Below the pieces are notes generated by a model that worked only from the letters and a program-made list of their open reading frames with translations, did no database searches and had not been told where the DNA came from. Both the position numbers and the translations under genes were made by a program. DNA of 51,567 nucleotides from positions 1-51,567 of the forward strand of contig CAYSBQ010000002.1 of NCBI GenBank assembly GCA_964429315.1. The letters are read 5' to 3'. The stretch is from an uncultured Desulfobacterales bacterium. GTDB lineage: Bacteria; Desulfobacterota; Desulfobacteria; Desulfobacterales; C00003060. Shown here one piece after another: positions 7,202-46,648 of this stretch. Within the stretch, counting starts at the first letter, position 1. Every line of letters begins with the position of its first letter.

Positions 7202-7860
7202 TGCCTGTTGACAGAAACACTCTTCTTCTCGATCTTTATAAAAGACTTTACGATAGCTTTGGCCCCCGCCACTGGTGGCCGGGAGATTCCCCCTTTGAAA
7301 TAGCGGTAGGCGCCATCCTTACCCAGAACACGGCCTGGCGCAATGTTGAAAAGGCCATAGCAAACCTAAAGAAAAAGAGCCTGTTATCCGCTGAAGCCAT
7401 CTATAGCCTACCAGTGGAGGATCTGGCAGCGCAGATCAGATCGGCAGGCTACTATAATATCAAGGCCAAACGGCTAAAACACTTCGTCGAATTTTTGTTC
7501 CGGGAAAGCGGGGGCAATCTAGACGGCCTCGTTACCTGGGATCTTCATATATCAAGAAGCGAGTTGCTATCAATCAACGGGGTCGGGCCGGAAACCGCTG
7601 ATAGCATTTTGCTTTATGCCGCCAACAAACCAACCTTTGTTGTAGATGCTTATACAAGGCGTATCTTGTCCAGGCATAGACTCATGCCAGAGGAGGTCTC
7701 TTACGACGAAGTCCGCTCTTTTTTCATGGACTCTCTAGAGCCTGACGTGTATATTTTTAACGAATTCCATGCACTCTTGGTCCATTTGGGCCACACGTTT
7801 TGTACAAAGAGAAAACCAAAGTGCACTACATGTCCTGCTATTGGGTGGAATAATGACTAA
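7201..7860 (+). CDS. endonuclease III-like HhH-GPD base-excision repair protein
   Basis: 219 aa. AILTQNTAW, a helix-hairpin-helix LLSINGVGPETADSILLYA, and a C-terminal Cys cluster CTKRKPKCTTCP. The start overlaps the upstream stop (TGATG). Confidence 0.8.
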   Translation: MPVDRNTLLLDLYKRLYDSFGPRHWWPGDSPFEIAVGAILTQNTAWRNVEKAIANLKKKSLLSAEAIYSLPVEDLAAQIRSAGYYNIKAKRLKHFVEFLFRESGGNLDGLVTWDLHISRSELLSINGVGPETADSILLYAANKPTFVVDAYTRRILSRHRLMPEEVSYDEVRSFFMDSLEPDVYIFNEFHALLVHLGHTFCTKRKPKCTTCPAIGWNND

Positions 7861-7875
7861 GGAGCGTAACACAAA

Positions 7876-8817
7876 ATGGCAAAGCTGAACCTGGCCTTGC
7901 TTTCGGGCGGCATTTCATCTGAAAGAGAGGTTTCTCTCAAGGGGGGCGAACAGGTATTTGAAGCCCTTAACAAGGATAACTACGAGATAATCCGCTACGA
8001 TCCGGCCACTGATCTGGGCAGACTTGTAGCTGATGCCAAAAAAATCGACGTCGCATTCATTGTGTTGCACGGTCCATACGGTGAAGACGGCACCATTCAA
8101 GGGTTACTCGACCTCCTTCACATCCCCTACCAAGGTTCGGGCGTGCTGGCAAGCGCCTTGGCCATGGACAAACTCGTGTCTAAGCGCCTCTACCAAGAAG
8201 CCGGGCTCCGCGTACCTCCTGCTAACGTGTTAACGCAGGGCCGGCCTTTTGATCCAGAGGCATTTGTGCAAAACCCGGGATACCCTTTAGTTGTAAAACC
8301 CAGGCGTGGGGGGTCCAGCGTTGGGACTAACATCGTCTCCACCCCCGACCAATTGCAAGAAGCCTGCGACAAGGCCTTCGCATTTGACCTTTCTTTGATT
8401 ATTGAGGCCTATCTTGAAGGAACTGAAATAACCGGGGGTATTCTGGGAAATGATGAACTACAACACCTTCCCATCGTGGAGATAGTACCTGCTTCAAGCT
8501 ATACCTTTTTTGATTACGAGGCCAAATATACCAAGGGGGCCACAAGTGAAATCTGTCCGGCACGAATTAGCAATGCGCTTTCCGTCCAAGCCCAGTCAAT
8601 TGCTGAAACAGCTCATAAAGCCCTTGATTGCCGGGGATACAGCAGGACCGATATGATCATTCATCGGAATGAAATCTTTGTGCTTGAAACCAATACCATC
8701 CCCGGCATGACCCCTGTCAGCCTTTTCCCTCTGGCTGCCCAAGAGGCGGGATTCTCTTTTGAAAGGCTTCTCGACCGCTTGATAGAGCTTGCGCTGGAAG
8801 ATCATAACGGGGGTTGA
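7876..8817 (+). CDS. ddl: D-alanine--D-alanine ligase
   Basis: 313 aa. LSGGISSEREVSLKGG, VLHGPYGEDGTIQGLLDLLHIPYQGSGV, DKLVSKRL, and LETNTIPGMT are typical Ddl motifs. Confidence 0.9.
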   Translation: MAKLNLALLSGGISSEREVSLKGGEQVFEALNKDNYEIIRYDPATDLGRLVADAKKIDVAFIVLHGPYGEDGTIQGLLDLLHIPYQGSGVLASALAMDKLVSKRLYQEAGLRVPPANVLTQGRPFDPEAFVQNPGYPLVVKPRRGGSSVGTNIVSTPDQLQEACDKAFAFDLSLIIEAYLEGTEITGGILGNDELQHLPIVEIVPASSYTFFDYEAKYTKGATSEICPARISNALSVQAQSIAETAHKALDCRGYSRTDMIIHRNEIFVLETNTIPGMTPVSLFPLAAQEAGFSFERLLDRLIELALEDHNGG

Positions 8818-25636: not shown

Positions 25637-26797
25637 CTACTTGATAGCATTCGTAAACTTGAAGTTCGTTGTCTGACGCCACGTGTAGTACGCAGGATCA
25701 CGAAAATCGTCGATGAGATGGTGGGTAAACGGAATGTCACAAACCTCAAACCATCGTTCCCAACCGATCCTCTCGGCCCATTCACCCAGCCGCTCATACT
25801 TGTTGGCATTGGCGGAATAGGCATTAACTATCTTCTTAATGGCACCGGTCATGCTCGGCCAGCGCGGCATCTCGTTGGGGATAAAGGCGACTACCACCTT
25901 GGAGAACTTCGGGGCACTGATTCTGTTGGATATCTTGCCCCCCGCCATGAGGACGATACCATCGCCTTCCGCATCAGCCAGAGGCATGGACGGACACATG
26001 GTGTAGCAGTTGCCGCAGAACATACAGCGCCCCGCGTTGACCGCTACACTCTTTACCTGCTGGCCGTTTACCTCTACTTTGGCCGGCTTGACTGCCGCCG
26101 TCGGGCAAGCCGCTACGGCAAGAGGAATCTCGCACATCTTGTCCAGATACTCATGGTCCAACATGGGCGGTTTGCGGTGATATCCCAGAATAGCGATATC
26201 AGAGCAGTGCACAGCGCCGCACATGTTCAGACAACATGCCATAGAGACCCTGAGTTTTGCCGGGAGTTTCATCTCCGTAAACTCATCAAAGAGTACATCC
26301 ATCGTGGCCTTTACGGTGCCCGAGGCATCCGTTGCCGGCGTGTGGCAGTGTATCCAGCCCTGGGTGTGAACGATATTGGTGATCCCAGCGCCCGTACCGC
26401 CTAGAGGAAACTTATAGCACCCGCCTGGTTGTTTCCGGCTCAGAAGATCGTTTTTCAAGGGCTCAACCTTGTCCTTGCTGTCTACCATAAACTCGATGTT
26501 ATTCCTGGTAGTAAACCGGAGATAGCCGTCACAGTGTTTTTCGGCGATCTCATTTATCTCGCGAATGTGAGACACACTCATGAGGCGGCACCCACCAACG
26601 CGAAGAACATAAAGCTCATCGCCGCTTTCGGCGACGTGAACGCAAATACCCGGCTCCAAGATCTCGTGATAAAGCCATTTTCCCTTATTTTTCTTGATAA
26701 CCGGCGGATAAAACTCTTCGTAATATTTCGGTCCGATATCCGTAATCCGGTCTACCATCGGTTTTTTGGGATCATATCCTGATGAAATAAATGCCAT
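25637..26797 (-). CDS. dsrB: dissimilatory sulfite reductase beta subunit
   Basis: Start chosen at ATG 26797 behind [37 protein letters not shown]..., sirohaem/FeS Cys motifs and a ferredoxin insert (CPTAA...CMFCGNC). Confidence 0.95.
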
Positions 26798-26809
26798 GGT
26801 TGTCACCTC

Positions 26810-28129
26810 CTATCTCTGATGATACTTCCTGAATTCGTTAATATCACGTGTAAAGCCACCCGGAACCTCTTCTTCTTTCCAGAAGACATAGGGGTTGGAC
26901 CGGGGTTCTTGAACCATCTGTGGGATGGCGTCGAAGCCGGTCACTTCAAGCAATTTCTGCAGACCCTGACGCTTCAGCAGCTCGCCAAGACGCTCCCGGT
27001 TTTTGCCTTCTTCCATCCACCAATCCCAAATGGGTTCGATCACCTTCTCCTTGATCTCATCATAAGGAGGCTCAACCTTGATAAAGGGAACAATCAATGT
27101 AGCCATTTGAGCGCCATCCAAAATTGGGGCCTTGGCGCCCGCCAGCAAACTAGCACCGGTATCTTTTCCAATCCTCAAGGCCCTGGGCATAACGTTAATG
27201 CAGTGCATGCAGCGTGTACACTCCCGGTTGTTGATCTCAAGCTTGCTGCCGTCCATTCGCATACACCCGGTAGGACAAAGATCAATGACCTCTTTTTGAA
27301 TGTCAAAAGGACCCCAATCACGGCCTGAATGGGCGCCGCCGTTGGACTTTAGCTCGCCACCCACATACGCCTTGACCGCCTCCTGGTCCATGCGGATATC
27401 ATCTCGCCATGTGCCGATAAATGAAAGGTCCGAACGGGCGATAGAGGCCACACAGCAGTTGGGACAGCCGTCAAACTTAAACTTAAATTTGTACGGAAAT
27501 GCCGGACGATGAAGCTCATCCTGGTATTCCATGGTCAGCTGATAGCAAAGCTCCTGAGTATCGTAACAGGCATACTCACACATGGACTGACCCATACAGT
27601 CGGAAGGCGTTCTCAGGTTCGAACCGGAACCCCCAAGGTCTTGACCCAGGTTGTGGGTCAACTCATAGAAGATCTCCTCCAACTGTACTGTCGTCGTCCC
27701 GATAAAGACAATATCACCGGTAGCACCGTGCATGTTTGTAATGCCGCTGCCCCGTCTCTCCCACAAATCACACAGTTTTTCCAGGTACTCCGCCGTATAG
27801 TAATGTCCCATTACCTGATTGACACGCATCGTGTGAAAGGCTGCAACACCTGGAAACATCTGCGGCTGGTCACAGTACCGGCCGATAACTCCACCGCCGT
27901 AGCCAAACACGCCCACGATGCCGCCGTGCTTCCAGTGGGTCCTGCCGTGCTCGTACGACAATTCCAAGATACCCAAAAGATCTTCGCAACAGTCTTGGGC
28001 GATCTGGTACTCAACATTCTTCTCGTTTTTCTGCCTGGACTCAGCTTCACGCTTAATATCGGAGACAAAGCTCGGCCACGGCCCTGTTTCCAGCTCGTCC
28101 AGTAGAGGTGTTTTATGCTTAAATCCCAT
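26810..28129 (-). CDS. dsrA: dissimilatory sulfite reductase alpha subunit
   Basis: 439 aa. MGFKHKTPLLDELETGPWPSFVSDIK..., CPNCC, CTRCMHCINVMP. GGAGGT RBS. Confidence 0.95.
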   Translation of the reverse strand: MGFKHKTPLLDELETGPWPSFVSDIKREAESRQKNEKNVEYQIAQDCCEDLLGILELSYEHGRTHWKHGGIVGVFGYGGGVIGRYCDQPQMFPGVAAFHTMRVNQVMGHYYTAEYLEKLCDLWERRGSGITNMHGATGDIVFIGTTTVQLEEIFYELTHNLGQDLGGSGSNLRTPSDCMGQSMCEYACYDTQELCYQLTMEYQDELHRPAFPYKFKFKFDGCPNCCVASIARSDLSFIGTWRDDIRMDQEAVKAYVGGELKSNGGAHSGRDWGPFDIQKEVIDLCPTGCMRMDGSKLEINNRECTRCMHCINVMPRALRIGKDTGASLLAGAKAPILDGAQMATLIVPFIKVEPPYDEIKEKVIEPIWDWWMEEGKNRERLGELLKRQGLQKLLEVTGFDAIPQMVQEPRSNPYVFWKEEEVPGGFTRDINEFRKYHQR

Positions 28130-30969: not shown

Positions 30970-32298
30970 TCACGATGTCGCAAAGAAACTTTCCATTACC
31001 TTGTTGAATTCTTCCCCCCGCCACGCTGCGGAAGGTTTTGTGGCCTCAGACACCAGGATGTCCTGTTTCAAAAAAGGCAAAAAGTCCGAAACCCTTGGGA
31101 TAACTACCCTGACTACCGGAAAGTCCAGTACCGGATGCGTCTGCTTTAATATGATGGGTTCGGTGTTCAGGACCTTGCATATCCCCTTGATTTTCTCAGT
31201 TTCGCCAAGGATGTCATCGACCGTGACGTTCCCATAGTCTTTGGTTTCACCTTGCTCAAGAAACGAGATGTCTTTCGGAGAAATGCCGCATTTCATTAAC
31301 AAATAGAAATTATCTACCTGAGACCTGTGGATAACAGGCCTGTCCAACTGCGGGCGCGGAGTCGATAATGTCTCCCTGCCTTGCATGCTTTCCGTAAAAC
31401 ACCTTGTCAGGGCTTCGTCGAGATTGAAAGAAACCCCCGGTATGAGTATTCTATGCTCCAGCCGATCGGAACGTAGATTATGGTTAATGAAAAGGACACC
31501 TATGGCCGGCAATAGACCATCAAAAGAAAGATCCTTGATTATAACATCAACTTTGTTTTCCTTATAGAACGCGATCATACGCCTTATGCTCTCGTTTTCT
31601 ACTGAATCAGGGTCGATTGATGGTATTATCTTTTCAGGTCTGATCGTCTCTATTTGGGCATGACGTTCAAAGATTTCACAGGAGGCCTGAACCATTGCCT
31701 CTTCAATGGTGTTTCCTGCCGCAAGGCCGTTAGAGGCGTGAATGTAGGCAATAAAATTAACAGGTACCTTTATGGTTTTTTTACGGTTTACCGAAAACCC
31801 GTCAACCCAATGATGGGCCATCCGGCTGTTTTTGATATCTTCGATGTCCGCTTTGCGCAAATGCGTCTCGTTTCCCAGCAAGTCCTCTATCTTTAAGGGA
31901 TCTTCTACGTCGTCCTGATGGGCATGGATATACCCATCCATCCATTCATAATTCAGGAACCTGTTGATCTCCTTGTTGTAAAGCGCGGGAAAGTTAAACC
32001 TTACCTCTTCTTCAAAAACCGGATAGAATAACCCGGCGCTGAAGCGTTCAGCCAGTTCTGCATATGCGCTTGCCTCGGCAAGCTCCGGGGTAATGCCTTT
32101 TCCGTTACAAACGATCCTTATGGAATCGATCCAGACCCGCCCCCAATGTATATTCTCCGACACCCGGAAAGGAGCGTACTCGGCACTAAGTCCCAACTTG
32201 CGGAATCCAGTCTTTATCCTCTCAATGGTGTTGGCGGGAATGTCGCACTTGCCATACTCGTTTCTAACACAATTTTGAAATTCCATTCTATTCGCCAC
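30970..32298 (-). CDS. stand-alone YcaO-family ATP-dependent amide-activating enzyme
   Basis: 442 aa (GTG at 32298 or ATG at 32286). SAYAELAERFSAGL and ASNGLAAGNTIEEAMVQASCEIFERHA are hallmark YcaO motifs, as is the C-terminal DFPVVRVVIPRVS. Confidence 0.85.
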   Translation of the reverse strand: MANRMEFQNCVRNEYGKCDIPANTIERIKTGFRKLGLSAEYAPFRVSENIHWGRVWIDSIRIVCNGKGITPELAEASAYAELAERFSAGLFYPVFEEEVRFNFPALYNKEINRFLNYEWMDGYIHAHQDDVEDPLKIEDLLGNETHLRKADIEDIKNSRMAHHWVDGFSVNRKKTIKVPVNFIAYIHASNGLAAGNTIEEAMVQASCEIFERHAQIETIRPEKIIPSIDPDSVENESIRRMIAFYKENKVDVIIKDLSFDGLLPAIGVLFINHNLRSDRLEHRILIPGVSFNLDEALTRCFTESMQGRETLSTPRPQLDRPVIHRSQVDNFYLLMKCGISPKDISFLEQGETKDYGNVTVDDILGETEKIKGICKVLNTEPIILKQTHPVLDFPVVRVVIPRVSDFLPFLKQDILVSEATKPSAAWRGEEFNKVMESFFATS

Positions 32299-35758: not shown

Positions 35759-38700
35759 ATGCGTGATCCAGCCATCTACATAAAAGGGGCCAGGCAAAAC
35801 AACCTCAAGAACCTTGACCTTAAAATCCCCCTCAACCAGATCACAGTAGTCACCGGGGTTAGCGGATCCGGGAAGTCTTCGCTCGCCTTTGACACCTTGT
35901 ATGCCGAAGGGCAACGCAGGTACGTGGAGACCTTCTCACCTTATGCCCGACAATTCATGGACCGTATGGATCGACCTCAAGTAGATCGTATTGAGGGAAT
36001 CCCGCCGGCCATCGCCATTGACCGCAAGGCTCCGGTGCGAACCTCCCGCTCCACGGTGGGGACCATGACGGAATTGACTGACTACGTGAAGCTCCTCTAC
36101 GCCCGTCTGGGACAACTCCACTGCAAAGGATGCGGTAGACCGGTCATACCTGAAACCCCACAGTATGTATGGGAACTCTTGCAGGATCTGTCCGATGGTA
36201 TCCAGGTCGTCATTACCTTTCCCTTCTCCGTTAAAGGGAAAGAACCCGTCACAGGGTACAAAGAACTGGCACGGCTCGGCTTTGATCGCTTTTTTTGTGA
36301 CGGCAAGGTTTGGCCCATTGAGAACAAAGGGGCAAAGGAAGATCTCGAATCGTTCCATATAGTTGTAGACCGGGTCATACTCCGAAAAAAGGACAAAACG
36401 AGAATCATAGCCTCCCTGGAGCAGGCCTTCCATTTCGGGCAGAGCTACTTCGATGTTTGGATCAAGCCTGCCGGCGCTGATTCTAATTCAAACGAACAGA
36501 ATCAACACCTTTCTTTCAGCAATACCCTGGAATGTGCTAAATGTAAGATCTCCTATACCCCTCCACAGCACAACCTCTTTTCTTTTAACAGCCCCCTTGG
36601 AGCCTGTGAGAATTGCAGGGGATTTGGTCGGATCATCGATATTGATTTGGACCTCGTCATCCCGGACCCCAACCTTTCCCTGGAAGACGGCGCCATCAAG
36701 CCTTGGGGAGACTGGCTAGACCATCGCATGGAATATGAAGACTTGATAGCCTTTTGTCGGCGCAAGAAAATACCAACCCGGATTCCATTTCAAGACCTCA
36801 AAAGCCACCACAAAGATGCCTTAATTGAGGGTACGTCCCGCTACTACGGAGTACGCGGTTTTTTTAACTGGCTCGAATCGAGAAAATACAAGATGCATGT
36901 GCGGGTTTTCCTTTCCCGATACCGTCTATACACGATTTGCTCTCGGTGTAATGGAACGCGCTTTAAGGAAGAGGCCCTGCTGTATCGACTTGGGGGGCTG
37001 AATATCGGCGAGCTTTACGCATTGAATGTAGATAAGGCCAATGAGTTCTTTGCATCGCTCCGCATACCACCCTTGGATGAAGCCGGCATGCTTGTCTTGG
37101 ACGAAATCCGAAACCGGCTAAGATATCTTCGAGACGTAGGGCTCGGTTATCTTGCTCTCAACAGGCAATCCCGTACTCTTTCCGGGGGTGAGGTCCAGCG
37201 CGTGGCCTTGGCTTCCGCCCTCGGGTCTTCACTGGTCAACACCCTCTATGTCCTTGATGAACCAAGTATCGGCCTTCACCCCAGAGATAACCATCGCCTT
37301 ATCCGTATAATGAAGGGTCTAAGAGACCTTCAGAACACATTGGTTGTAGTGGAGCATGACCCTGAGATCATCAGTCAAAGTGACCTCATCCTCGATCTCG
37401 GCCCCGGGGCAGGCAAGCAGGGTGGGAATGTGATGTATTTCGGTCCCACGGCGAGCGTGAATAGCTCCCTTACCGGACAGTATCTCAAGGGTGAGCGCTT
37501 CATCCCAGCGCCCAAGAAACGGCGAAAACCTAAGAAGGGACTGTGGCTCACGATCCAAGGGGCCTGCGAACACAATCTAAAGGATATAGATGTGCATATC
37601 CCCTTGGGTCTTATGGTCTGTTTGACCGGTGTTTCAGGCTCCGGCAAATCGACTCTGGCAGAAGAGATCCTTTATAAGGCCATCAAGTGGGCCAAGTGGG
37701 ACCCACGGGGCCGCGCCGGTCATCACAAGGCAATTGAAGGTATGGAACATATTGTGGACGCAATCCTTGTAGACCAACGACCCATTGGACGGACTCCCAG
37801 AGCAAATCCTTTGACTTATACCAAGGCGATGGGCCCAATCCGCAACCTCTTGGCTAACACACATGATGCGTGTGCTGGTAAGCTTGGGCCGAGCCATTTC
37901 TCCTTCAATGTAGCTGGAGGAAGATGTGATACATGCCGCGGGGAAGGATTTGAAAAGATTGAAATGCAGTTTCTCTCTGATGTCTATGTCTCTTGCCCTG
38001 ACTGCAAAGGGAAGCGATTCAAAGACAAGGTCCTGAAGGTAACATACAAAGGGAAAAACATCTACAATATCCTTTCTATGACTGTGGATGAGGCCCTTAG
38101 CTTTTTTGAAGATCAACCAAAAGTGGAAACTGCCCTAAGACCGATGGCAGATGTGGGACTCGGTTATGTACGCCTTGGACAACCCATAAACACATTTTCC
38201 GGAGGTGAGGCCCAGCGGCTCAAGCTCTCCCGATACTTAAAGGAGAGCACCGGCAATTCTAAACTTTTTATCTTTGACGAGCCGACAACAGGTCTTCATT
38301 TTAACGACATTGAAAAGCTCCTGGCTGTCCTGCAAAGGCTTGTCGCTGAAGGCAATACGGTATTGCTGATAGAACATAATATGGATGTCGCAAAGGCGGC
38401 TGACTGGATTATTGACTTGGGGCCTGAGGGTGGAGAAGATGGAGGTCAAATCGTTGCAACCGGGCCACCTGAAAAAATAGCAAAAGAAGCGGGATCTCAT
38501 ACAGGCCGGTTCCTTAAGGCCTATTTAACCAACCGGGGTCGTTTAGAACCCGACAACCTCTCTGATCCTGGGTCCAAGATGGTTTTCGCCACTTCCACGC
38601 TGCCCGTCTCACATAAAGGGAAAGGTTTTGGAACAAGCAATGCCGCAGCGGTGACCACCATTTCAGAACCGTCCGATCTAAGACAGTCTATGGGCTTCTC

Positions 38701-41173
38701 GTCGGCTATTACCATAAAAGGCGCAAGAGAGCATAACCTCAAGAATTTGACACTGTCCATTCCACGCAACCAACTTGTGGTCCTCACGGGAGTGTCCGGC
38801 TCGGGTAAATCGACACTCGCCTTTGACATCCTCTTCGCCGAAGGACAGCGCCGCTATTTGGAAAGCCTAACCCCTTATGTGCGACAATATATACAGGCGC
38901 TTGAACGCCCCGAAGTAGATGTCATATCCGGCCTTCCGCCTACGGTTGCTATTGAACAGCGTATCAGTCACGCCAGCCGTCGCTCTACAGTAGCAACCCT
39001 AACGGAAATCTACCACTTTTTGAGATTGTTATACAGCAAACTGGGTTCTCAACACTGCCCCGGCTGTGGACGCAAATTGACCGCCCGGAGCCCGGAACAA
39101 ATAGCAATTCAAATCAAGCGGCGTTACAAAAACAAGAAAGCGATTGTCCTGGCTCCCAAGATATCAGGAAGAAAAGGCTTTCAAAAGGATGTCTTGGCCC
39201 AGGCGCGGCGAAAAGGCTTTTCGGAAGCAAGGATTGATGGTGTTATGACCGGGCTTGAAAAGCACATGGCCCTCGCACGCTACCACGAACACACTATCGA
39301 GGTTGTTGTTGGGCGACTTCCTGCGGCAGATCCGGACAGCGTTGTGTCACAGGCCCTTAAAGAAGGCAACGAACACCTCATCATCGTCGACTCCAGTGGA
39401 CATGAAGAAGTCTTCAGTCAACATGCTACCTGCCCTGTATGCGGTCTTGGCCTCCAAATGCCGGACCCTCGGCTTTTTTCTTTTAACAGCAGCCATGGAG
39501 CCTGTCCCGAGTGTGATGGTCTGGGTGACATAGGACACAAGGATGAACGCCGCGTGTGTCCCCGCTGCCGTGGAAGTCGTCTCGGTCAAAGGGCATTGGC
39601 AGTAAAGATAGGCGGCCATACTATCTGGGACCTGGTACAACAACCATCCGACAAAATCTTTTCAATCTTGAAAGGTCTTTCCTTTCCCAAAGAACAACTA
39701 CCCATTGCAGAGCCAATCCTGGCAGAGGTCCTAACGCGACTTGCTCTGCTTAACCGGCTCGGATTGTCCTATCTTTCGCTAGGCAGAAGCGGCGACACCC
39801 TCTCCGGGGGTGAGGCCCAACGAGTCCGGCTGGCAGCTCAACTCGGATCAAACCTGACAGGCGTATGCTATATTCTGGATGAGCCTACCATCGGGCTTCA
39901 TGCCAGGGACAATAGGATGCTCCTTAATGCTCTAGTGGAACTCAAGGAAAAAGGCAATTCAATCCTGGTAGTAGAACATGATGAGGAGACCATTCGAGCT
40001 GCCGACCATATCATCGATCTCGGCCCGGGAGCCGGCCGGGATGGGGGACAAATCGTGGCAAGTGGCAGCCTGAAAGATCTAAAGAGCGTTGCCGAATCTA
40101 TTACCGGCGCCTGTCTTAACTCAATAACCCGCACGGTTACCTCCCGTCTCAGGCCGTATAACAAGCTACCCGGCCTCACCATTCACAAGGCAAAAGAACA
40201 TAACCTAAAGGGGATAGACGTGGGGTTTCCCCTGGGAACCTTGATTTGTGTGACGGGTGTATCGGGATCGGGAAAATCTACCCTTCTTAAAGATGTTTTG
40301 TACCACGGAGTGCGTGAACGTCTATTGAAGAAACCCTCCGGCATAAGAAACTATGAGAAAATAGAAGGCTGGCAAAATCTAAACCGTATACTGGAAGTAG
40401 ACCACCGCCCCATTGGCCGCACCCCCCGCTCTGTGCCAGGTTCTTATGTGGGATTTTTGTCCGATATAAGAAGGCTTCTTTCTAACACCCCCGAGGCACG
40501 TGCCCGAGGATATGAGGCCGGTCGGTTTTCTTTCAATGTGGCTGCCGGTCGTTGTGCGGTCTGCAAAGGCCATGGCAGCCTAAAAGTTGCTATGAACTTT
40601 CTGCCCGATGTCTATATACACTGTGAGGTATGTGGTGGAAGACGATTTGATCAGGAAACCCTGGCAGTAACCTACAAAGGAAAGAATATTGCTGAAATCC
40701 TGGATCTTACTTTCAAAGAGGCCGGAGACTTCTTTGCTGCCATTCCTTCGATTTGTAGGCCGGTTTGTTTTGTATGTGATATCGGCCTAGGCTATCTGCG
40801 CCTCGGTCAAGCCAGCCCTACTCTTTCCGGGGGGGAGGCCCAACGTATTAAACTAGCCAAAGAATTGGCCAAGCCGTCAAAGGGCCAAGATCACAACACG
40901 CTCTATATCCTGGATGAACCAACCACAGGGCTACACCTTGACGACATTCACCAACTCTTAAAAGTCCTGCAAGCGCTCGTTGATCAAGGGAATACTGTGG
41001 CTGTCATCGAACATAACATGGAAGTCATAAAAGAGGCCGACTTCATAATCGACCTTGGTCCCGAAGGAGGAGATCATGGGGGGCAGGTCGTGGCAACAGG
41101 TTCACCCTTGGAACTTCTTTCCAACCCAAAGACCTCTCATACAGCTTGCTATCTAAAGGAATATCTTGTGTAG
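35759..41173 (+). CDS. uvrA: tandem-fused double UvrA (two complete UvrA-like units, four ABC nucleotide-binding domains, 1804 aa)
   Basis: Four Walker A motifs (GVSGSGKSS/T) and four signatures (LSGGEVQR, FSGGEAQR, LSGGEAQR x2). Unit 1 is about aa 1-922, the linker about 60 aa, and unit 2 about aa 984-1804. UvrA-type zinc modules are present in both units. Confidence 0.9.
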   Translation: MRDPAIYIKGARQNNLKNLDLKIPLNQITVVTGVSGSGKSSLAFDTLYAEGQRRYVETFSPYARQFMDRMDRPQVDRIEGIPPAIAIDRKAPVRTSRSTVGTMTELTDYVKLLYARLGQLHCKGCGRPVIPETPQYVWELLQDLSDGIQVVITFPFSVKGKEPVTGYKELARLGFDRFFCDGKVWPIENKGAKEDLESFHIVVDRVILRKKDKTRIIASLEQAFHFGQSYFDVWIKPAGADSNSNEQNQHLSFSNTLECAKCKISYTPPQHNLFSFNSPLGACENCRGFGRIIDIDLDLVIPDPNLSLEDGAIKPWGDWLDHRMEYEDLIAFCRRKKIPTRIPFQDLKSHHKDALIEGTSRYYGVRGFFNWLESRKYKMHVRVFLSRYRLYTICSRCNGTRFKEEALLYRLGGLNIGELYALNVDKANEFFASLRIPPLDEAGMLVLDEIRNRLRYLRDVGLGYLALNRQSRTLSGGEVQRVALASALGSSLVNTLYVLDEPSIGLHPRDNHRLIRIMKGLRDLQNTLVVVEHDPEIISQSDLILDLGPGAGKQGGNVMYFGPTASVNSSLTGQYLKGERFIPAPKKRRKPKKGLWLTIQGACEHNLKDIDVHIPLGLMVCLTGVSGSGKSTLAEEILYKAIKWAKWDPRGRAGHHKAIEGMEHIVDAILVDQRPIGRTPRANPLTYTKAMGPIRNLLANTHDACAGKLGPSHFSFNVAGGRCDTCRGEGFEKIEMQFLSDVYVSCPDCKGKRFKDKVLKVTYKGKNIYNILSMTVDEALSFFEDQPKVETALRPMADVGLGYVRLGQPINTFSGGEAQRLKLSRYLKESTGNSKLFIFDEPTTGLHFNDIEKLLAVLQRLVAEGNTVLLIEHNMDVAKAADWIIDLGPEGGEDGGQIVATGPPEKIAKEAGSHTGRFLKAYLTNRGRLEPDNLSDPGSKMVFATSTLPVSHKGKGFGTSNAAAVTTISEPSDLRQSMGFSSAITIKGAREHNLKNLTLSIPRNQLVVLTGVSGSGKSTLAFDILFAEGQRRYLESLTPYVRQYIQALERPEVDVISGLPPTVAIEQRISHASRRSTVATLTEIYHFLRLLYSKLGSQHCPGCGRKLTARSPEQIAIQIKRRYKNKKAIVLAPKISGRKGFQKDVLAQARRKGFSEARIDGVMTGLEKHMALARYHEHTIEVVVGRLPAADPDSVVSQALKEGNEHLIIVDSSGHEEVFSQHATCPVCGLGLQMPDPRLFSFNSSHGACPECDGLGDIGHKDERRVCPRCRGSRLGQRALAVKIGGHTIWDLVQQPSDKIFSILKGLSFPKEQLPIAEPILAEVLTRLALLNRLGLSYLSLGRSGDTLSGGEAQRVRLAAQLGSNLTGVCYILDEPTIGLHARDNRMLLNALVELKEKGNSILVVEHDEETIRAADHIIDLGPGAGRDGGQIVASGSLKDLKSVAESITGACLNSITRTVTSRLRPYNKLPGLTIHKAKEHNLKGIDVGFPLGTLICVTGVSGSGKSTLLKDVLYHGVRERLLKKPSGIRNYEKIEGWQNLNRILEVDHRPIGRTPRSVPGSYVGFLSDIRRLLSNTPEARARGYEAGRFSFNVAAGRCAVCKGHGSLKVAMNFLPDVYIHCEVCGGRRFDQETLAVTYKGKNIAEILDLTFKEAGDFFAAIPSICRPVCFVCDIGLGYLRLGQASPTLSGGEAQRIKLAKELAKPSKGQDHNTLYILDEPTTGLHLDDIHQLLKVLQALVDQGNTVAVIEHNMEVIKEADFIIDLGPEGGDHGGQVVATGSPLELLSNPKTSHTACYLKEYLV

Positions 41174-41676
41174 CTTTTTAAATAAGCGCTCACAGGTTCA
41201 GGGTTCAACTTTTTTCTTGACACATTACAATATATTGTGCTTATGTGCTATGAGTACTGGAATATATGGATATGAGGAGGACTTTCAGCGAAAGTAGTAA
41301 AGACGTTGAATCTCGAAAAGATCGGAGCATGTGAGAAGCTGGGCCTGTATTTGTATTAGACTTTCACTAGTCCTTAAAGCATTGACATGCACGTTGCCCA
41401 CCCGAGAAAACGTTTGCAACCCTACCGACTGCAAGAACGATCAAGGTCTCCCGGTCCTGCAGGCAGGATCGGTATTTTTCCTTTCCCAGACAAAACCTTA
41501 GCCCTTATTATCATCCCGGAATCCCCAGAAGTTTTTCCAATCAAGCCAGATGCTTTTTCAGTCAAGATGATCCAACAAAAACAGATAGGAACAAACCATT
41601 TCCAATCTTTAACGCCGGGAAAAAGCGACGTTTGGCGAATCAAAATCCAACAATCAAAACATAAGGAGGATACGCC

Positions 41677-42750
41677 ATGAGAAAAATTGCTCTCGTCAAC
41701 CAAAAGGGCGGCTGCGGGAAGACCACGACCGCAATCAACATGGCATCTTGTCTGGCAAATGCGGGCAAGAAGGTTTTGCTGGTTGATCTGGACCCTCAAG
41801 GGCATGTGGCATTGGGCCTGGGAATAGAGACTGAAGGGATGGATAAGAGCATCTATGAAGTGTTATTGGGAGAAACGCCAATAACCAATGTCATTGTGAC
41901 CTTATCGGACAACCTTGATGCCGTTTTAAGCGATGTTATCCTAAGCGCCTTTGAACAGTCTATGGCCGGCACTCCGGGGCGGGAAAACAGACTCAGACAG
42001 AGCCTCAAGATTGTCGAAGACGATTACGAATACCTCATCATTGACAGCCCACCCAGCGTAGGGCTTTTAACCTTTAATGGTCTCATGGCCTCAAACGAGT
42101 TGATTATCCCCGTAGACCCCAGCCGCTTTTCTTTGCACGGACTAGGAAAACTACTGGAAACCCTCCAGATAATCGAGGAACAGGCGGGGCATAGGTTGTC
42201 CGTCAAGATTCTTGCCACAAATATTGATCTAAGGACCAATTTCTGTAAAGAAGTGCTGGAAACACTTATGGAACACTTTTCTGATAAATGTTTTGATGCC
42301 GTTATCCACACGTGCACCAGGATAAGGGAAGCTACCAGTCATGGCAAATCTGTTGTTGAATATGACAAACATTGTAACGCCTTTCGAGACTACCAAGAAC
42401 TAACACAGGAAATCCTCGGTCAGGAAGCTGATATGGAGGCGCGAGTGGCCCGGCTTGAACTCCTGTCAGAGATTGAAAAAGAGGAGGAGGAACAAAGGAC
42501 GGTTATGTTTACTGTAGAGGCGCCGGTGAACGCCGACGTACAAATTGCCGGGGATTTTAATCAGTGGCAACCCGAGGTTCTTCACTTTACCGACACTCCG
42601 GGAGAACCGGCATGGCAAAAACTCATCACCCTTAGCCCCGGTTCCTACGAATACAAATATCTCGTTAACGGTCTGTGGGTTGTTGATCCGGACAATGATA
42701 AGATTATAGACAACCCATTGGGCGGTACTAATTCCATCATAGATGTTTAG
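41677..42750 (+). CDS. ParA/MinD-family ATPase fused to a C-terminal CBM48 / AMPK-beta-type glycan-binding domain
   Basis: 357 aa. Deviant Walker A NQKGGCGKTT, VLLVDLDPQG, YLIIDSPPS. An acidic coiled linker follows. The C-terminus is VMFTVEAPVNADVQIAGDFNQWQPEV...GSYEYKYLVNGLWVVDPDN...GGTNSIIDV. AAGGAGGA RBS. Confidence 0.85.
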   Translation: MRKIALVNQKGGCGKTTTAINMASCLANAGKKVLLVDLDPQGHVALGLGIETEGMDKSIYEVLLGETPITNVIVTLSDNLDAVLSDVILSAFEQSMAGTPGRENRLRQSLKIVEDDYEYLIIDSPPSVGLLTFNGLMASNELIIPVDPSRFSLHGLGKLLETLQIIEEQAGHRLSVKILATNIDLRTNFCKEVLETLMEHFSDKCFDAVIHTCTRIREATSHGKSVVEYDKHCNAFRDYQELTQEILGQEADMEARVARLELLSEIEKEEEEQRTVMFTVEAPVNADVQIAGDFNQWQPEVLHFTDTPGEPAWQKLITLSPGSYEYKYLVNGLWVVDPDNDKIIDNPLGGTNSIIDV

Positions 42751-42805
42751 CTTTCAAAAAAGTTCGGCTTGCACAGCTACTTTAAGAATGAAGAAGTAAC
42801 ATAGA

Positions 42806-43558
42806 ATGGAAGAGAAAAAAACGGCTAGAAGCCTGGAAGATGTATCGCATTTTTTCCTTTCAGGTCACGATTCTTCTAATCAACCCTGCGGTCCCTCAAG
42901 AAAAAAGGGTCGGGGCGACCCTGTCCAAACCGCCGCTTTGTCTGAAGATATCCACCGAAGAGAGCGTCCCGTTTATAAGGGATTTGTCACGATGAAATCA
43001 ACACGTAGAACCGATGTTTCATCGGTACCCAAAGACCGGTTAGTAGAAGCAGCCGGGCAATTCTTGCTCAATCTTGGATCGTACGAAGATGCCTCTGTCG
43101 AAGAAAATATTGCTTCTCCCAAGTTCGGTTCATCAGATCTATTGCTTACTAATAAGGCCAAGACCGATATTGTTTGTGCTAGGCTAAACAATGGGAAAAA
43201 CTGTGAGGCTTTTATAGTTTCAGCCATTGCCTATTATTTCTGGTTTAGGGAATTTTTGCAAGTGGGCCAGTGTTTGTTCAACGGAAAACCCCGGCTCGAA
43301 ATGTACTTCTTCTTAGACGATCTGCCCGCTGTAGTTTCACACATGTTGGAAAAACTGAGAGAAAATGTGAGGGTGCATCTGGTTAAATACAATATATTAC
43401 AAGTCGAAGGCCTTAAAGGCCTAGCTATATATTTCCAGCATATCTTCCCCGATAACAATGTCAAAAGAATTTTTGGGGGGCCGCAAATCACCGAAGAAAC
43501 CCCTGTTTGCGACTCAATACCTTTGAATATCCCAAACTCAAGCCCTCTGTGTCGCTGA
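42806..43558 (+). CDS. hypothetical 250-aa protein downstream of the ParA-CBM48 gene
   Basis: Co-oriented with a 55-nt gap. Charged, disordered N-terminus (MEEKKTARSLEDVSHFFLSGHDSS...KKGRGD) and a folded-looking C-terminal half. No SD sequence. Confidence 0.5.
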   Translation: MEEKKTARSLEDVSHFFLSGHDSSNQPCGPSRKKGRGDPVQTAALSEDIHRRERPVYKGFVTMKSTRRTDVSSVPKDRLVEAAGQFLLNLGSYEDASVEENIASPKFGSSDLLLTNKAKTDIVCARLNNGKNCEAFIVSAIAYYFWFREFLQVGQCLFNGKPRLEMYFFLDDLPAVVSHMLEKLRENVRVHLVKYNILQVEGLKGLAIYFQHIFPDNNVKRIFGGPQITEETPVCDSIPLNIPNSSPLCR

Positions 43559-43616
43559 AACAACTCAAACACCATGAGCAAGGTGGATAAAGCTTTTTGT
43601 GAAGACTAGTAAGCCT

Positions 43617-43645
43617 TTGACACCCCTACCCCTTTCTGATAGACG
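43617..43645 (+). promoter_or_regulatory. possible promoter TTGACA-17-TAGACG placed so the purSL mRNA would be leaderless
   Basis: cTTGACAcccctacccctttctgaTAGACGtgctccATG. Six nt separate the -10 element from the ATG, and there is no SD sequence. Confidence 0.3.
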
Positions 43646-43651
43646 TGCTCC

Positions 43652-46648
43652 ATGCCTTATCGTTTGGAAATTGCCCTAAAACCGGAACTCTTTGATGCTG
43701 AAGGGGCTTCTATCTGCCGCAAGGCGAACGACTACTTCGGATTCAGTGTAAGATCTGTTCGCACCATAAACATTCTAACCATCGACATCGATCTTAGAAA
43801 AGATCAACTCGAGGCCCTCCAGCAAGAGATCTTTACCAATCCTGTCAGCCAGATTTCCTCCTACGACCCCCTTGACATAGATTTTGACTGGATTCTCTGG
43901 ATCGGTTACCGCCCAGGGGTGCGGGATAATCCGGGAAGCACGGCGGTAGAAGCTGTTCAGGATTTCTTTGGCCTTCATATCAAATCCCATGAAGGCATCT
44001 ATACATCCAAGAGATACGCCCTTAAAGGAGACAAGCTTTCCTTAAAAGAAGCGGACCAAATAGCCCAAGAGCTTCTGGCCAACGATACGATTCAGCAATG
44101 GAAGGTTTTTTCTAAAGACGACTGGAACCCGAATGAAGGCGCCGGTATCATTATACCCCGCATAAGGCTAGACCACAAACCTACTGTTACTTCCGTGGCT
44201 ATCGATACAAACGAAACTCTGATGCGGATAAGCGATCAACGCAACCTCGCCTTAAACCCGAATGATATTCCGACGATCAGGGCGTACTACCTCAAAGAAG
44301 ATGTTACTACCGAACGTAAGACCTTAGGCTTATCGGAGCCTTCAGACATTGAGCTGGAATACATCTCCCAGGCCAGGAGTGATCACTGCAACCATAATAC
44401 CTTTAAGGGGCTTTTTCGCTACCTGGACCTCGAGACGGGAGAGCGCCGGGAAGTAAACGATCTCTTTTCCACGTGCGTCGAAACCCCTACCCTGGAGATC
44501 AAAAAAAAGAAGCCGTGGGTAATCTCGGTCCTTTGGGACAACGCGGGGGTCGGACGATTCAATGATGACTATTACTATGTTATTACTGGAGAAACCCATA
44601 ATTCACCTTCCAATATAGAGGCCTATGGTGGCGCCATTACCGGGATAGTAGGCGTCTACAGGGATCCCATGGGTACCGGCAAAGGCTCCAAGCTCGTTGC
44701 CGGCATGTACGGATACTGCGTTGGACCTAGGAACTATGACGGGCCATTAAAGCCCCGTCTCCACCCAAAGCGTCTACTAGATGGCGTTATTGAAGGGGTC
44801 CGTGACGGCGGCAACAAAAGCGGCATCCCAACGCCTTATGGCCAAGTCTTCTTTAATGAAGGATACCTAGGCAAGTGCCTTGTCTTCGTCACCGCCATCG
44901 GACTTATGCCTTCCCAAATCAAAGGCATCCCTTGCGAAGAAAAGACCACATCTCCGGGAGAACTCATTGTTATGTGTGGCGGCCGTGTGGGAAAAGACGG
45001 CATTCACGGCGTTACCGCAGCCTCCGAGGGCTTTTCCGCCCACACCCCGGCAGGTCACGTACAGATTGGAGACCCTTATACACAAAAAAAGATGCATGAC
45101 TTTCTCTTAGAGGCCCGTGATCAAGGCCTTATTGCCTTTATTACGGACAATGGCGGGGGAGGGCTTTCATCTTCCATAGGAGAATCGGCCTGTTTTAGTA
45201 ACGGCTGCATCGTTGAATTGGAAAAGGTCCCTCTTAAATACGAGGGACTGGACCAATGGGAGATTTGGATCTCTGAATCACAGGAGCGGATGACTGTAGC
45301 CGTTGAGCCCGAACATCTCGAACAGTTCATGGCCCTTTCCGGAAAACACGCGGTGGAAAGTACCGTTATTGGTCGTTATACGGATTCCGGGAAACTCCAC
45401 ATTACTTATAACGACAAGACCTGTGCCTATGTGGACCTTGATCTGCTCAGCCGTCAATTTCCCCAATGGGAATTTGACGCCGAGTGGATACCCCCGAAAC
45501 TAAGAGGACTTGCCGAGCCGGTCTTAGAAGAGCCAAAGGAAGCCTCCGCCTTGCTTCTTGCCCTTCTTTCCCAGCCCAATATCTGTTCTAAAGAGTGGAT
45601 TGTCCGGCAGTACGACCACGAGGTGCAGGGAACAAGCGTTATAAAACCCCTGGTTGGAAAGGCCCGTGATATAAACAGCGACGGGGTCGTCATCCGCCCT
45701 GATCTAAAATCAACCCAAGGCCTGGCAATGGCGCAGGCCCTGCTTCCCACCTATTCTAATATAGACACATACGATATGGTTGCCTGTACAATCGATGAGG
45801 CTGTGCGTCGCGTGGTAGCCGTGGGAGGCAACCCCAACCACATTGGAGGGGTAGACAATTTCTGCTGGCCCAGTGTCGGGTATGACCCGAGTGACAATCC
45901 CGACGGCAAATACAAGGCGGCCCAGCTTGTGAGGGCCAACTGGGCCTTACGGGATCTTTGCCTGGCCTATGAGCTTCCGCTGCTTTCAGGAAAAGACAGC
46001 ATGTATGTAGACGGACGTCTCAGAGGACCGTTTGGAGAAACCCATAAGGTCTCGGCACTTCCCACACTGCAGTTTTCATGTATAAGTGTAGTAGCGGATA
46101 TCACACAATGCATAACCATGGATGCAAAGGTTGCTGGAGATCTTGTATATGTAGTAGGTGCGACAAGGGATGAATTAGGCGCCTCTGAATATTACGAGTT
46201 CTTCGGCTATGTGGGACTCAATCTTCCCAAGGTGGAACCCGCCTCATTTATGAAGTGCTACAATGCACTTAACCTGGCCGTAAGGAAAGAACTGATCGCA
46301 TCTTGCCATGGCATCTACCGGGGCGGCCTGGGAATTCATCTGGCCATGGTGGCTATGGCAGGGGAGCTAGGAATGTCTGTGGACTTATCCGGGGTTCCTA
46401 AAACGGGTGCGGAAAAAGACCATACCATCCTCTACTCGGAAACACCGGGGCGTTTCATAATAACTATCGATCCAGGAGATCGATCCTTCTTTGAATCAAC
46501 TATGGACAACATCCCTTGTGCCTGCATTGGAACTGTTTGTGAAAGCCCGGATTTGCGCATCAACGGACTCGATGGAAAGCCCCTTATCCGCCTGCCCGTC
46601 TCCAAACTGAAGAAGGCCTGGAAGGAAACCTTCGGGGGGCTTGTATGA
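43652..46648 (+). CDS. purL: fused PurS-PurL phosphoribosylformylglycinamidine synthase subunit
   Basis: 998 aa. The N-terminal ~80 aa are PurS-like (MPYRLEIALKPELFDAEGASI...). The rest has FGAM synthase II motifs (SDHCNHNTF, ETHNSPS, GGGLSSSIGE). Confidence 0.9.
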   Translation: MPYRLEIALKPELFDAEGASICRKANDYFGFSVRSVRTINILTIDIDLRKDQLEALQQEIFTNPVSQISSYDPLDIDFDWILWIGYRPGVRDNPGSTAVEAVQDFFGLHIKSHEGIYTSKRYALKGDKLSLKEADQIAQELLANDTIQQWKVFSKDDWNPNEGAGIIIPRIRLDHKPTVTSVAIDTNETLMRISDQRNLALNPNDIPTIRAYYLKEDVTTERKTLGLSEPSDIELEYISQARSDHCNHNTFKGLFRYLDLETGERREVNDLFSTCVETPTLEIKKKKPWVISVLWDNAGVGRFNDDYYYVITGETHNSPSNIEAYGGAITGIVGVYRDPMGTGKGSKLVAGMYGYCVGPRNYDGPLKPRLHPKRLLDGVIEGVRDGGNKSGIPTPYGQVFFNEGYLGKCLVFVTAIGLMPSQIKGIPCEEKTTSPGELIVMCGGRVGKDGIHGVTAASEGFSAHTPAGHVQIGDPYTQKKMHDFLLEARDQGLIAFITDNGGGGLSSSIGESACFSNGCIVELEKVPLKYEGLDQWEIWISESQERMTVAVEPEHLEQFMALSGKHAVESTVIGRYTDSGKLHITYNDKTCAYVDLDLLSRQFPQWEFDAEWIPPKLRGLAEPVLEEPKEASALLLALLSQPNICSKEWIVRQYDHEVQGTSVIKPLVGKARDINSDGVVIRPDLKSTQGLAMAQALLPTYSNIDTYDMVACTIDEAVRRVVAVGGNPNHIGGVDNFCWPSVGYDPSDNPDGKYKAAQLVRANWALRDLCLAYELPLLSGKDSMYVDGRLRGPFGETHKVSALPTLQFSCISVVADITQCITMDAKVAGDLVYVVGATRDELGASEYYEFFGYVGLNLPKVEPASFMKCYNALNLAVRKELIASCHGIYRGGLGIHLAMVAMAGELGMSVDLSGVPKTGAEKDHTILYSETPGRFIITIDPGDRSFFESTMDNIPCACIGTVCESPDLRINGLDGKPLIRLPVSKLKKAWKETFGGLV

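Follow-up and report, generated by a model that had tools for sequence, protein, structure and literature searches.

The presence of a single gene encoding a ParA-type ATPase joined to a carbohydrate-binding module (CBM) raises the question of what such a protein could position in a bacterial cell. The gene lies in contig CAYSBQ010000002.1 (assembly GCA_964429315.1) of an uncultured Desulfobacterales bacterium, analysed here as a stretch of 51,567 nucleotides (nt) hereafter called the window. Its product, which we name ParA-CBM48, is encoded by an open reading frame (ORF; 41677..42750, + strand) of 357 amino acids (aa) plus stop codon that matches the Pfam families AAA_31 and AMPK1_CBM, and the Shine-Dalgarno sequence AAGGAGG (41663..41669, +) can be read 7 nt 5' of the start codon. 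A second ORF of 250 aa plus stop codon (42806..43558, +), the partner gene, starts 55 nt after the stop codon of ParA-CBM48, at the place reported in a first-pass annotation made from the sequence alone. We tentatively propose that these genes belong to an orphan chromosomal ParA-type positioning module, the cargo of which would most likely be a glycogen (alpha-glucan) granule, a reading to which we grant slightly less than an even chance.

Protein structures were predicted with AlphaFold2 for both the 357-aa and the 250-aa proteins, folds were searched with Foldseek against the PDB, and residue conservation was measured on an alignment of 83 ParA-CBM48 sequences, corresponding to the window and 82 non-redundant loci from at least nine phyla. 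The ATPase domain, of Soj-type ParA according to its motifs, Foldseek matches and conservation, covers residues 1-233 (41677..42375, +). The complete deviant-Walker-A ParA/MinD ATPase announced by the first-pass annotation was recovered, with the Walker A motif KGGCGKT at residues 10-16 (41704-41724, +), DLDPQG at residues 37-42, the Walker B motif IIDSPP at residues 121-126 and an AAA_31 match at E 4.7e-54. The model, with a mean predicted local distance difference test score (pLDDT) of 85.9, consists of an ATPase core, a long helix and an all-beta C-terminal domain. Its best Foldseek matches are Soj/ParA structures (9a6n, 8ray, 6iub, 8jmj and 2bek; template modelling (TM) scores, normalised on the target, of 0.87-0.92), which outrank McdA, MinD, FlhG and BcsQ in the list, the McdA structures 6non and 6nop being also among the matches. 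The ATPase domain shares 35-39% identity with the Soj/ParA structures (Foldseek E 1e-21 to 1e-26 for 9a6n, 8ray, 6iub and 2bek), its sequence matches to chromosomal Soj/ParA range from E 1e-40 to 1e-46, and one of its nearest structural relatives, 8jmj, is a Soj-DNA-Spo0J complex. The ATPase belongs to the Soj/ParA family, with a deviant Walker A motif carrying the signature lysine.

The catalytic set is intact, as K10, K15, D37, D39 and D123 are invariant in 83/83 sequences. So is Cys13 of the Walker A motif, at a position where the aligned Soj structures have a valine (KGGVGKT). Positions equivalent to those of Soj were read from HMMER alignments to the Thermus thermophilus and Helicobacter pylori proteins. 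At the equivalents of R189 of BsSoj and of K199, K230 and K247 of HpSoj, which we take to be DNA-contact positions, a basic residue is found in 98% of the sequences at position 215, 82% at position 191 and 57% at position 231, and nearby position 217 has one in 82% as well. The Soj-like fold, the invariant catalytic set and the basic residues at the DNA-contact equivalents together make an active, nucleoid-binding, Soj-like ATPase cycle plausible. Three further cysteines, C205, C213 and C233, are kept only in the close relatives of the window protein, where they are invariant or nearly so in an alignment of 20 sequences; with Cys13, they might confer a redox or metal sensitivity.

The ATPase domain is followed by an acidic C-terminal helix and a flexible linker (residues 234-273; 42376..42495, +), in agreement with the acidic linker described earlier: in the model the helix spans residues 234-266 and pLDDT falls below 50 at residues 262-270, and the segment contains 10 D/E vs 3 K/R. 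Its length varies from 15 to 82 aa among homologues and is greatest in Planctomycetota (63-82 aa).

The linker leads to a CBM48 module of the AMPK-beta type, predicted to bind glycogen (residues 274-357; 42496..42747, +) and supported by Pfam, PDB searches, the model and residue conservation. A CBM48 domain of about 85 aa had been proposed at 42495-42747 from its sequence pattern, to be checked by hidden Markov model (HMM), and the check is positive: residues 286-357 match AMPK1_CBM (PF16561) with E 2.6e-9 and 37.6 bits, above the gathering score of 26.8 bits, while the match to CBM_48 (PF02922) reaches 20.3 bits, slightly below its gathering score of 22.4 bits. When the last 101 aa were compared with the PDB sequences, the CBMs of AMPK beta1 and beta2 came first (E about 3e-6), followed by pullulanase, LSF1, SEX4 and GlgB; all named relatives down to E about 0.8 are starch- or glycogen-binding modules, and the lone exception comes last, at E 0.96. 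These matches, like those of the ATPase domain, exceed chance by a wide margin. In the model the domain forms eight beta strands over residues 274-356, with mean pLDDT of 80-93 per 10-residue block. According to the HMMER alignment of the PDB sequence search, W100, K126, W133 and N150 of AMPK beta1, which we take to be the residues contacting sugar in solved CBM complexes, correspond to W297, K327, W334 and N352 of ParA-CBM48. Among the 83 sequences, W297 and W334 are conserved in 100%, K327 is K/R in 100% and N352 is N/D in 96%; W313 is likewise conserved in 100%. The fusion of ParA to CBM48 is real and conserved, and the CBM retains the AMPK-beta sugar-contact residues. No transmembrane segment was predicted in ParA-CBM48, so the protein is probably cytoplasmic, and this location would leave intracellular glycogen or polyglucose as the only plausible alpha-glucan ligand. 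We infer that ParA-CBM48 binds glycogen.

To appreciate the distribution of the fusion, relatives were sought in one genome for each GTDB species, and at least 595 candidates were found. The best 80 were kept; 80/80 are full-length fusions and 80/80 come from metagenome-assembled genomes (MAGs). These best 80 belong to Desulfobacterota/Thermodesulfobacteriota, Nitrospirota, Gemmatimonadota, Acidobacteriota, Rokubacteria/Methylomirabilota, Myxococcota, Eisenbacteria, Latescibacterota and Planctomycetota, and the nearest among them, from Desulfobacterales bacterium S7086C20 (locus L007 in our numbering), is 90% identical to the window protein. PF16561 is present in all 120 closest clusters listed for the window protein and in all 120 listed for a Myxococcota homologue, under annotations that read merely 'AAA family ATPase' or 'chromosome partitioning protein'. 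In the searches for cultured or named carriers, made with the Myxococcota query and by cluster look-ups, only MAG or metagenome entries were found. A count of the fusion family using the last 123 aa against 1.84 billion representatives was uninformative, the top of the results being filled by proteins with tandem CBM48. Many proteins of this representative library carry 3-17 tandem AMPK-beta-type CBM48 repeats, commonly in about 480 aa with 4 repeats, and they outscore single-domain proteins against the CBM of the window.

The partner gene provides the second line of evidence. Its ORF opens with MEEKKTARSLEDVSHFFLSG, and residues 4-20 (42815..42865, +) form a conserved N-terminal peptide, KKTARSLEDVSHFFLSG, whose family consensus is [KR]xLGRGLE[DE]VSHLFLS. 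According to an HMM of the peptide, the gene directly downstream of ParA-CBM48 begins with it in 59/79 loci, the denominator being the loci with enough downstream sequence; the survey of the conserved neighbour thus reveals a syntenic, peptide-bearing gene. Four remaining HMM matches are weaker and lie further along those same partner proteins. What looked like a second copy of the peptide at the C-terminus of the MinD-like partners (see below) is on inspection probably their usual C-terminal helix. Variants include PKTLADVSHLFFS in Eisenbacteria, PRDLGDVLHYFLP in Myxococcota and LRDISHLYIS in Latescibacterota, and a few divergent Myxococcota versions score below the HMM threshold. In ParABS, the N-terminal peptide of ParB contacts Soj and stimulates its ATPase. 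The ParB N-terminal motif can be read in PDB sequences as GLGRGLEALL and GLGRGLSALL (1vz0 and 6t1f), and is carried by T. thermophilus Spo0J (MSRKPSGLGRGLEALLPK) and Caulobacter crescentus ParB (EGRRGLGRGLSALLGE). The partner peptide has in common with it the N-terminal position, the LGRGL core and the basic residues ahead of this core. Although this similarity is short, we regard it as a good lead for a ParB-like ATPase-stimulating peptide, a reading that the Soj-like nature of the ATPase supports.

The peptide is followed by a predicted disordered linker (residues 21-63; 42866..42994, +), recognised by its AlphaFold2 pLDDT and by tblastn. The charged, disordered N-terminus noted at first sight agrees with the model, in which residues 1-63 are predicted to be disordered, with 10-residue block means of pLDDT below 50 over residues 1-60; this N-terminus carries the conserved basic peptide. 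An alpha/beta domain follows (residues 64-215; 42995..43450, +), modelled with pLDDT of 85-94 as alpha-beta-beta-beta-alpha-beta-alpha-beta-beta, which we describe as PD-(D/E)xK-like (NucS-like) from AlphaFold2 and Foldseek. Its best matches are NucS/EndoMS (2vld, 5gke), SfsA, XisH, the nickase Nt.BspD6I and the nuclease domains of Can2/Card1; the five best, and most of the higher-probability ones below, are PD-(D/E)xK proteins, all with weak scores (E 3e-3 to 1e-1, TM about 0.3). D111 is invariant, and the strand GSSDLL / GEIDLL resembles the first acidic motif of these enzymes. The catalytic E-x-K is absent from the domain, the following strand reading ARL, AKL or VRL, and its lysine is also missing in distant homologues. 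The lack of this motif suggests that the domain is non-catalytic and probably not a nuclease. None of the Pfam, NCBIfam and PADLOC families matches the 250-aa protein, and its 11 detectable sequence relatives are mostly proteins of about 200 aa covering only its C-terminal 60%.

Comparison with other loci accounts for this pattern. In L001 and L005, ParA-CBM48 is followed by a protein of 211-312 aa and then by one of 199-203 aa. The former opens with KRKLGRGLEEVSHLFLSG or KKKKRGLEEISHLFLS and continues with a degenerate MinD/ParA-like body; the latter is homologous to residues 64-233 of the window partner. With tblastn, window positions 42803-43072 (approximately the first 89 aa of the partner) align at E 7.7e-8 with the N-terminal portion of the L001 MinD-like gene; only that portion is recovered in the window, fused to the PD-(D/E)xK-like domain, and the MinD-like body is absent from it. 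Judging from these alignments, the window partner unites the peptide and linker from the first gene with the product of the second, the MinD-like body having been lost, and the two-gene layout of L001 and L005 explains why its relatives are few and mostly restricted to the C-terminal part. The fused form also occurs in L007, L009 and L016. Compared with L007, the window partner lacks 33 nt, in frame, immediately ahead of its stop codon (window 43540-43558; L007 about 7815-7850), a deletion that removes the remnant of a C-terminal motif, of consensus ISxQELxEFxRLKExYL, kept in the free-standing PD-(D/E)xK-like proteins.

In most phyla, the peptide and a MinD-like protein are on one gene and the PD-(D/E)xK-like protein on the next. 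The MinD/ParA-superfamily body of these partners matches Pfam CbiA, ParA or AAA_31, the best NCBIfam model being the archaeal-type MinD, below its cut-off; its P-loop reads GxxxxGK[ST] in Eisenbacteria and allied lineages, and the Desulfobacterota versions of this loop are degenerate. The PD-(D/E)xK-like protein was found in 33 loci, either as a third gene or fused to the peptide. The peptide directly precedes this domain in the clade of the window and in the partners of about 200 aa of Gemmatimonadota, Rokubacteria and Acidobacteriota. Across phyla, the PD-(D/E)xK-like proteins are linked by BLAST at E 1e-6 to 1e-15 for a small set and by hhalign at E 3e-4 with a probability of 40%, and an iterated HMM of the family did not grow. 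On two long Myxococcota contigs the order is a MerR gene, ParA-CBM48, a protein of 255-272 aa, one of 188-213 aa and then an extracytoplasmic function (ECF) sigma factor. In Syntrophobacterales (L010-L014 and L017; e.g. L011 6212-7558), the peptide is instead fused to HTH_17, a coiled coil, one transmembrane helix and a periplasmic RodZ_C domain, which suggests that ParA-CBM48 may be linked there to the cell-envelope or MreB machinery. These layouts indicate that the ancestral module comprised three genes and that the window holds a reduced, lineage-specific fused form. Of the two-component system initially suggested, the syntenic, peptide-bearing partner stands; the partner is not, however, a simple adaptor but a fusion derived from a three-gene module.

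From the observed domain architecture, intact catalytic set, conserved contact residues, synteny and conserved peptide, we propose DNA binding, ATPase stimulation and a cell-biological outcome of the following kind. The Soj-like ATPase would dimerise on ATP and bind the nucleoid non-specifically via R215, K191 and R217, and the CBM48 module, one per subunit at the end of a flexible acidic tether, would bind glycogen directly. With one such module on each subunit, the ATP dimer would be a bivalent bridge between nucleoid and granule. The ParB-like peptide of the partner would then dock on the ATPase dimer, stimulate hydrolysis and free the bridge, and repeated binding and release would keep the granules distributed on the nucleoid and inherited with it. 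The body behind the peptide would set the place or the substrate of the release signal; it would be an inactive PD-(D/E)xK-like domain in the window and, elsewhere, a MinD-like body accompanied by a separate PD-(D/E)xK-like protein, or a RodZ-like membrane protein.

Several points weigh against a glycogen-positioning module. The cargo of canonical ParA systems is held by an adaptor, whereas here the predicted receptor is on the ATPase and not on the activator, so that a depletion-gradient ratchet, which distinguishes directed motion from mere tethering, is not obviously set up. The partner bodies resemble DNA- or membrane-associated modules (PD-(D/E)xK; HTH_17 with a transmembrane helix and RodZ_C) and not glycogen binders, and about a quarter of the 79 loci, mainly in Planctomycetota, are without an adjacent partner. 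The resemblance between the partner peptide and ParB is only 5-6 residues long, and ParB was not among the matches when the PDB was searched with a profile of the peptide. The fold search bearing on CBM48 was run on the whole protein only, with the ATPase matches dominating. Finally, clustering of the neighbouring genes at 82 loci detected no enriched glycogen-metabolism family and, the partners apart, no family that recurs at more than about 8 real loci; an apparent family at 12 loci was discarded as an antisense ORF artefact of GC-rich genomes.

The links between the module and glycogen genes in its neighbourhood are accordingly weak. At a single locus, L015 (CP070739.1), a GlgB gene (7304-8479) adjoins ParA-CBM48, 227 nt downstream, and no peptide-bearing partner adjoins ParA-CBM48 there. 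This 3.2-Mb MAG is labelled as a Methanomassiliicoccales archaeon; its ParA-CBM48 is 61% identical to the Desulfobacterales version, which makes the archaeal label look doubtful. Both of the Myxococcota loci that were annotated with Pfam have a gene of the phosphoglucomutase/phosphomannomutase (PGM/PMM) family on the opposite strand, some 4 kb downstream of the cassette (L087 13046-14386, -; L088 13517-14440, -), and a 448-aa ORF family matching it was found at 5 loci by neighbour clustering; this may reflect lineage synteny and not a functional link to glycogen.

Other explanations have to be considered. Glycogen could be the signal instead of the cargo, in which case it would sequester or free the ATPase and thereby regulate the action of the MinD-like or PD-(D/E)xK-like partner, for instance in division inhibition or in the control of cell cycle or development, on the nucleoid or at the membrane. 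Such a sensor or switch of glycogen status would agree with the nearest homologues of the CBM being the regulatory modules of AMPK beta, with the ties of MinD-like or RodZ-like partners to the division and elongation machinery, and with the regulators often encoded nearby, such as the CheY-like protein upstream in L001, L009 and L016 or, in Myxococcota, MerR and an ECF sigma factor. However, no conserved division or cell-wall gene stands beside the module in the clustering of the 82 loci, and the FtsZ, PomXY and MinC partners used by MipZ, PomZ and MinD were not seen here. The strictly conserved basic residues for nucleoid contact and the ParB-like peptide suit a transport or tether cycle equally well. 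We consider this explanation unlikely.

Alternatively, the system could be directed at DNA, the partner being a ParB analogue that would bind DNA by its PD-(D/E)xK-like or HTH domain, and ParA-CBM48 tying this DNA or the nucleoid to a glycogen granule used as an anchor or landmark. The fold of the partner comes closest to those of the DNA-binding nucleases NucS/EndoMS, SfsA and XisH, its peptide is ParB-like, HTH_17 is fused to this peptide in Syntrophobacterales, and other lineages have an upstream gene for MerR or for a small Rho_N-like protein. Yet Pfam and NCBIfam revealed no ParB/Srx, CTPase or centromere-binding domain, and the match to PD-(D/E)xK proteins is weak (E about 3e-3, TM about 0.3) with the catalytic motif absent. 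Neither replication-origin nor plasmid genes lie near the locus; no parS was identified and no centromere-like repeats were noticed, although no search was aimed at either. We thus regard this possibility as rather improbable.

It could also be that the C-terminal beta-sandwich only looks like a CBM48 and serves as a module for protein-protein contacts or another ligand, with a non-glucan cargo. The sub-threshold CBM_48 score, the wide occurrence of AMPK-beta-type modules in bacterial multi-repeat proteins without known function and the lack of genomic coupling to glycogen genes would fit this view. Against it, the AMPK1_CBM match exceeds its gathering score, the residues invariant across phyla are precisely the aromatic and polar ones that contact sugar in AMPK beta, and starch- or glycogen-binding modules account for every named PDB relative before the last, which makes a look-alike quite improbable. 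As for a defence system or a partition cassette of a mobile element, an ATPase paired with a PD-(D/E)xK-like gene superficially resembles many defence systems, but we rejected this highly improbable reading on the basis of PADLOC, which gave only weak P-loop matches for the ATPase (<=27.8 bits) and none for the partner, MinD-like or PD-(D/E)xK-like proteins, and of the degenerate nuclease motif and genomic context, the flanks being housekeeping and recurrent (a double uvrA in L001, a response regulator in L001, L009 and L016) and free of integrase, transposase and plasmid genes.

The proposed glycogen-positioning module can be compared with several known systems. It resembles Soj/ParA-Spo0J/ParB (ParABS, type Ib ParA) in the ATPase fold, the deviant Walker A lysine, the basic residues at DNA-contact equivalents and the K/R-x-LGRGL peptide with which the window partner, as ParB, opens. 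It differs in the addition of CBM48 to the ATPase, the invariant cysteine in place of valine in Walker A, a locus that is not origin-proximal and a partner devoid of the ParB/Srx CTPase and helix-turn-helix (HTH) centromere-binding domains. Because there is no ParB domain, the system is not ParABS. The module would work most like orphan ParA systems that position organelles, such as McdA-McdB: by our proposal it shares with McdAB, PpfA/TlpT, ParC/ParP and PomXYZ an orphan nucleoid ParA with a large non-DNA cargo, and with the McdAB-type systems a small adjacent partner whose charged, disordered N-terminus would control the ATPase. In those systems the adaptor binds the cargo, whereas here the predicted cargo module is fused to the ATPase; moreover, the partner families have no detectable similarity, and the candidate cargo is a storage polysaccharide.

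On the carbohydrate side, the CBM of AMPK beta, SEX4, LSF1 and PTST belong to one module family with that of the window, which keeps the W/K/W/N sugar-contact set, and each of these proteins uses CBM48 to attach to glycogen or starch an effector that is not glycolytic, as we predict here. The effector is a kinase scaffold, a phosphatase or a coiled-coil protein in those cases and a ParA ATPase in ours, in a bacterial operon with a partner bearing a ParB-like peptide. The proposed outcome, storage granules riding on the nucleoid, recalls PhaM, which tethers polyhydroxybutyrate (PHB) granules to the nucleoid so that both daughters inherit them; PhaM, however, is not an ATPase. Lastly, the partner domain resembles NucS/EndoMS and other PD-(D/E)xK nucleases in its modelled alpha-beta-beta-beta-alpha-beta core, as suggested by the weak Foldseek matches, and in the GSSDLL / GEIDLL strand, and differs from them by the missing E-x-K, by the lack of any family match and by its attachment to, or position behind, a putative ParA-interaction peptide.

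The window neighbours of the module are housekeeping genes (uvrA-like, purL, purQ and dsrAB-like), and neither mobile-element genes (integrase, transposase, plasmid) nor replication-origin genes were found around the locus in the window. Two adjacent genes with NIR_SIR domains (25637-28129, - and 30970-32298, -) resemble dsrAB of dissimilatory sulfite reductase, and a YcaO-family gene lies about 3 kb from this pair. Together with the housekeeping genes, the dsrAB-like pair fits a chromosomal region from a sulfate- or sulfite-reducing Desulfobacterota. The ORF directly upstream of ParA-CBM48 (35759-41173, +) encodes a double-length UvrA-like protein of 1804 aa with two complete UvrA units, that is four ABC ATPase modules, and a counterpart of 1792 aa precedes the cassette in L001 (1-4785); this double UvrA reflects local synteny among Desulfobacterales relatives and does not accompany the module in other phyla. 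Several Desulfobacterota loci, namely L001 (5278-5703), L009 (5544-5975) and L016 (5401-5865), have a gene for a single-domain CheY-like response regulator upstream of the cassette; the window lacks this gene. In two Desulfobacterota lineages, a 68-aa ORF stands just upstream of ParA-CBM48 (L001 5746-5952; L005 5604-5810), with a Rho_N/SAP-like N-terminus (24.5 bits for Pfam Rho_N, the cut-off being 24.9) and a Cys-rich tail; the window has no counterpart within the 500-nt upstream gap. Scans of positions 40900-43900 for Rfam families, promoters and terminators gave nothing above chance.

In the literature on ParA, MinD or McdA in connection with CBM48, glycogen or storage granules we found no description of such a module, nor did we find a curated family covering it. 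ParA/MinD ATPases are a general solution for positioning large cytoplasmic bodies; to our knowledge, the placement and inheritance of glycogen granules in bacteria are essentially unstudied, and we know of no ParA system for a storage polysaccharide. The design described here is unusual for the family, with a predicted receptor fused to the ATPase and a ParB-type peptide moved onto unrelated bodies. The module also offers a molecular handle, made of a predicted glycogen-binding domain, a predicted ATP-dependent nucleoid-binding domain and a 17-residue predicted activating peptide. It is conceivable, and we put this forward with some reserve, that many uncultured bacteria of at least nine phyla actively arrange and partition their glycogen granules by a dedicated ParA machine in which the ATPase is itself the receptor and a portable peptide, carried by varied bodies, determines the site at which the ATPase fires. 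If this were true, storage polysaccharide would join the list of ParA cargoes, and no ParA before ParA-CBM48 would have had a cargo-binding domain of its own.

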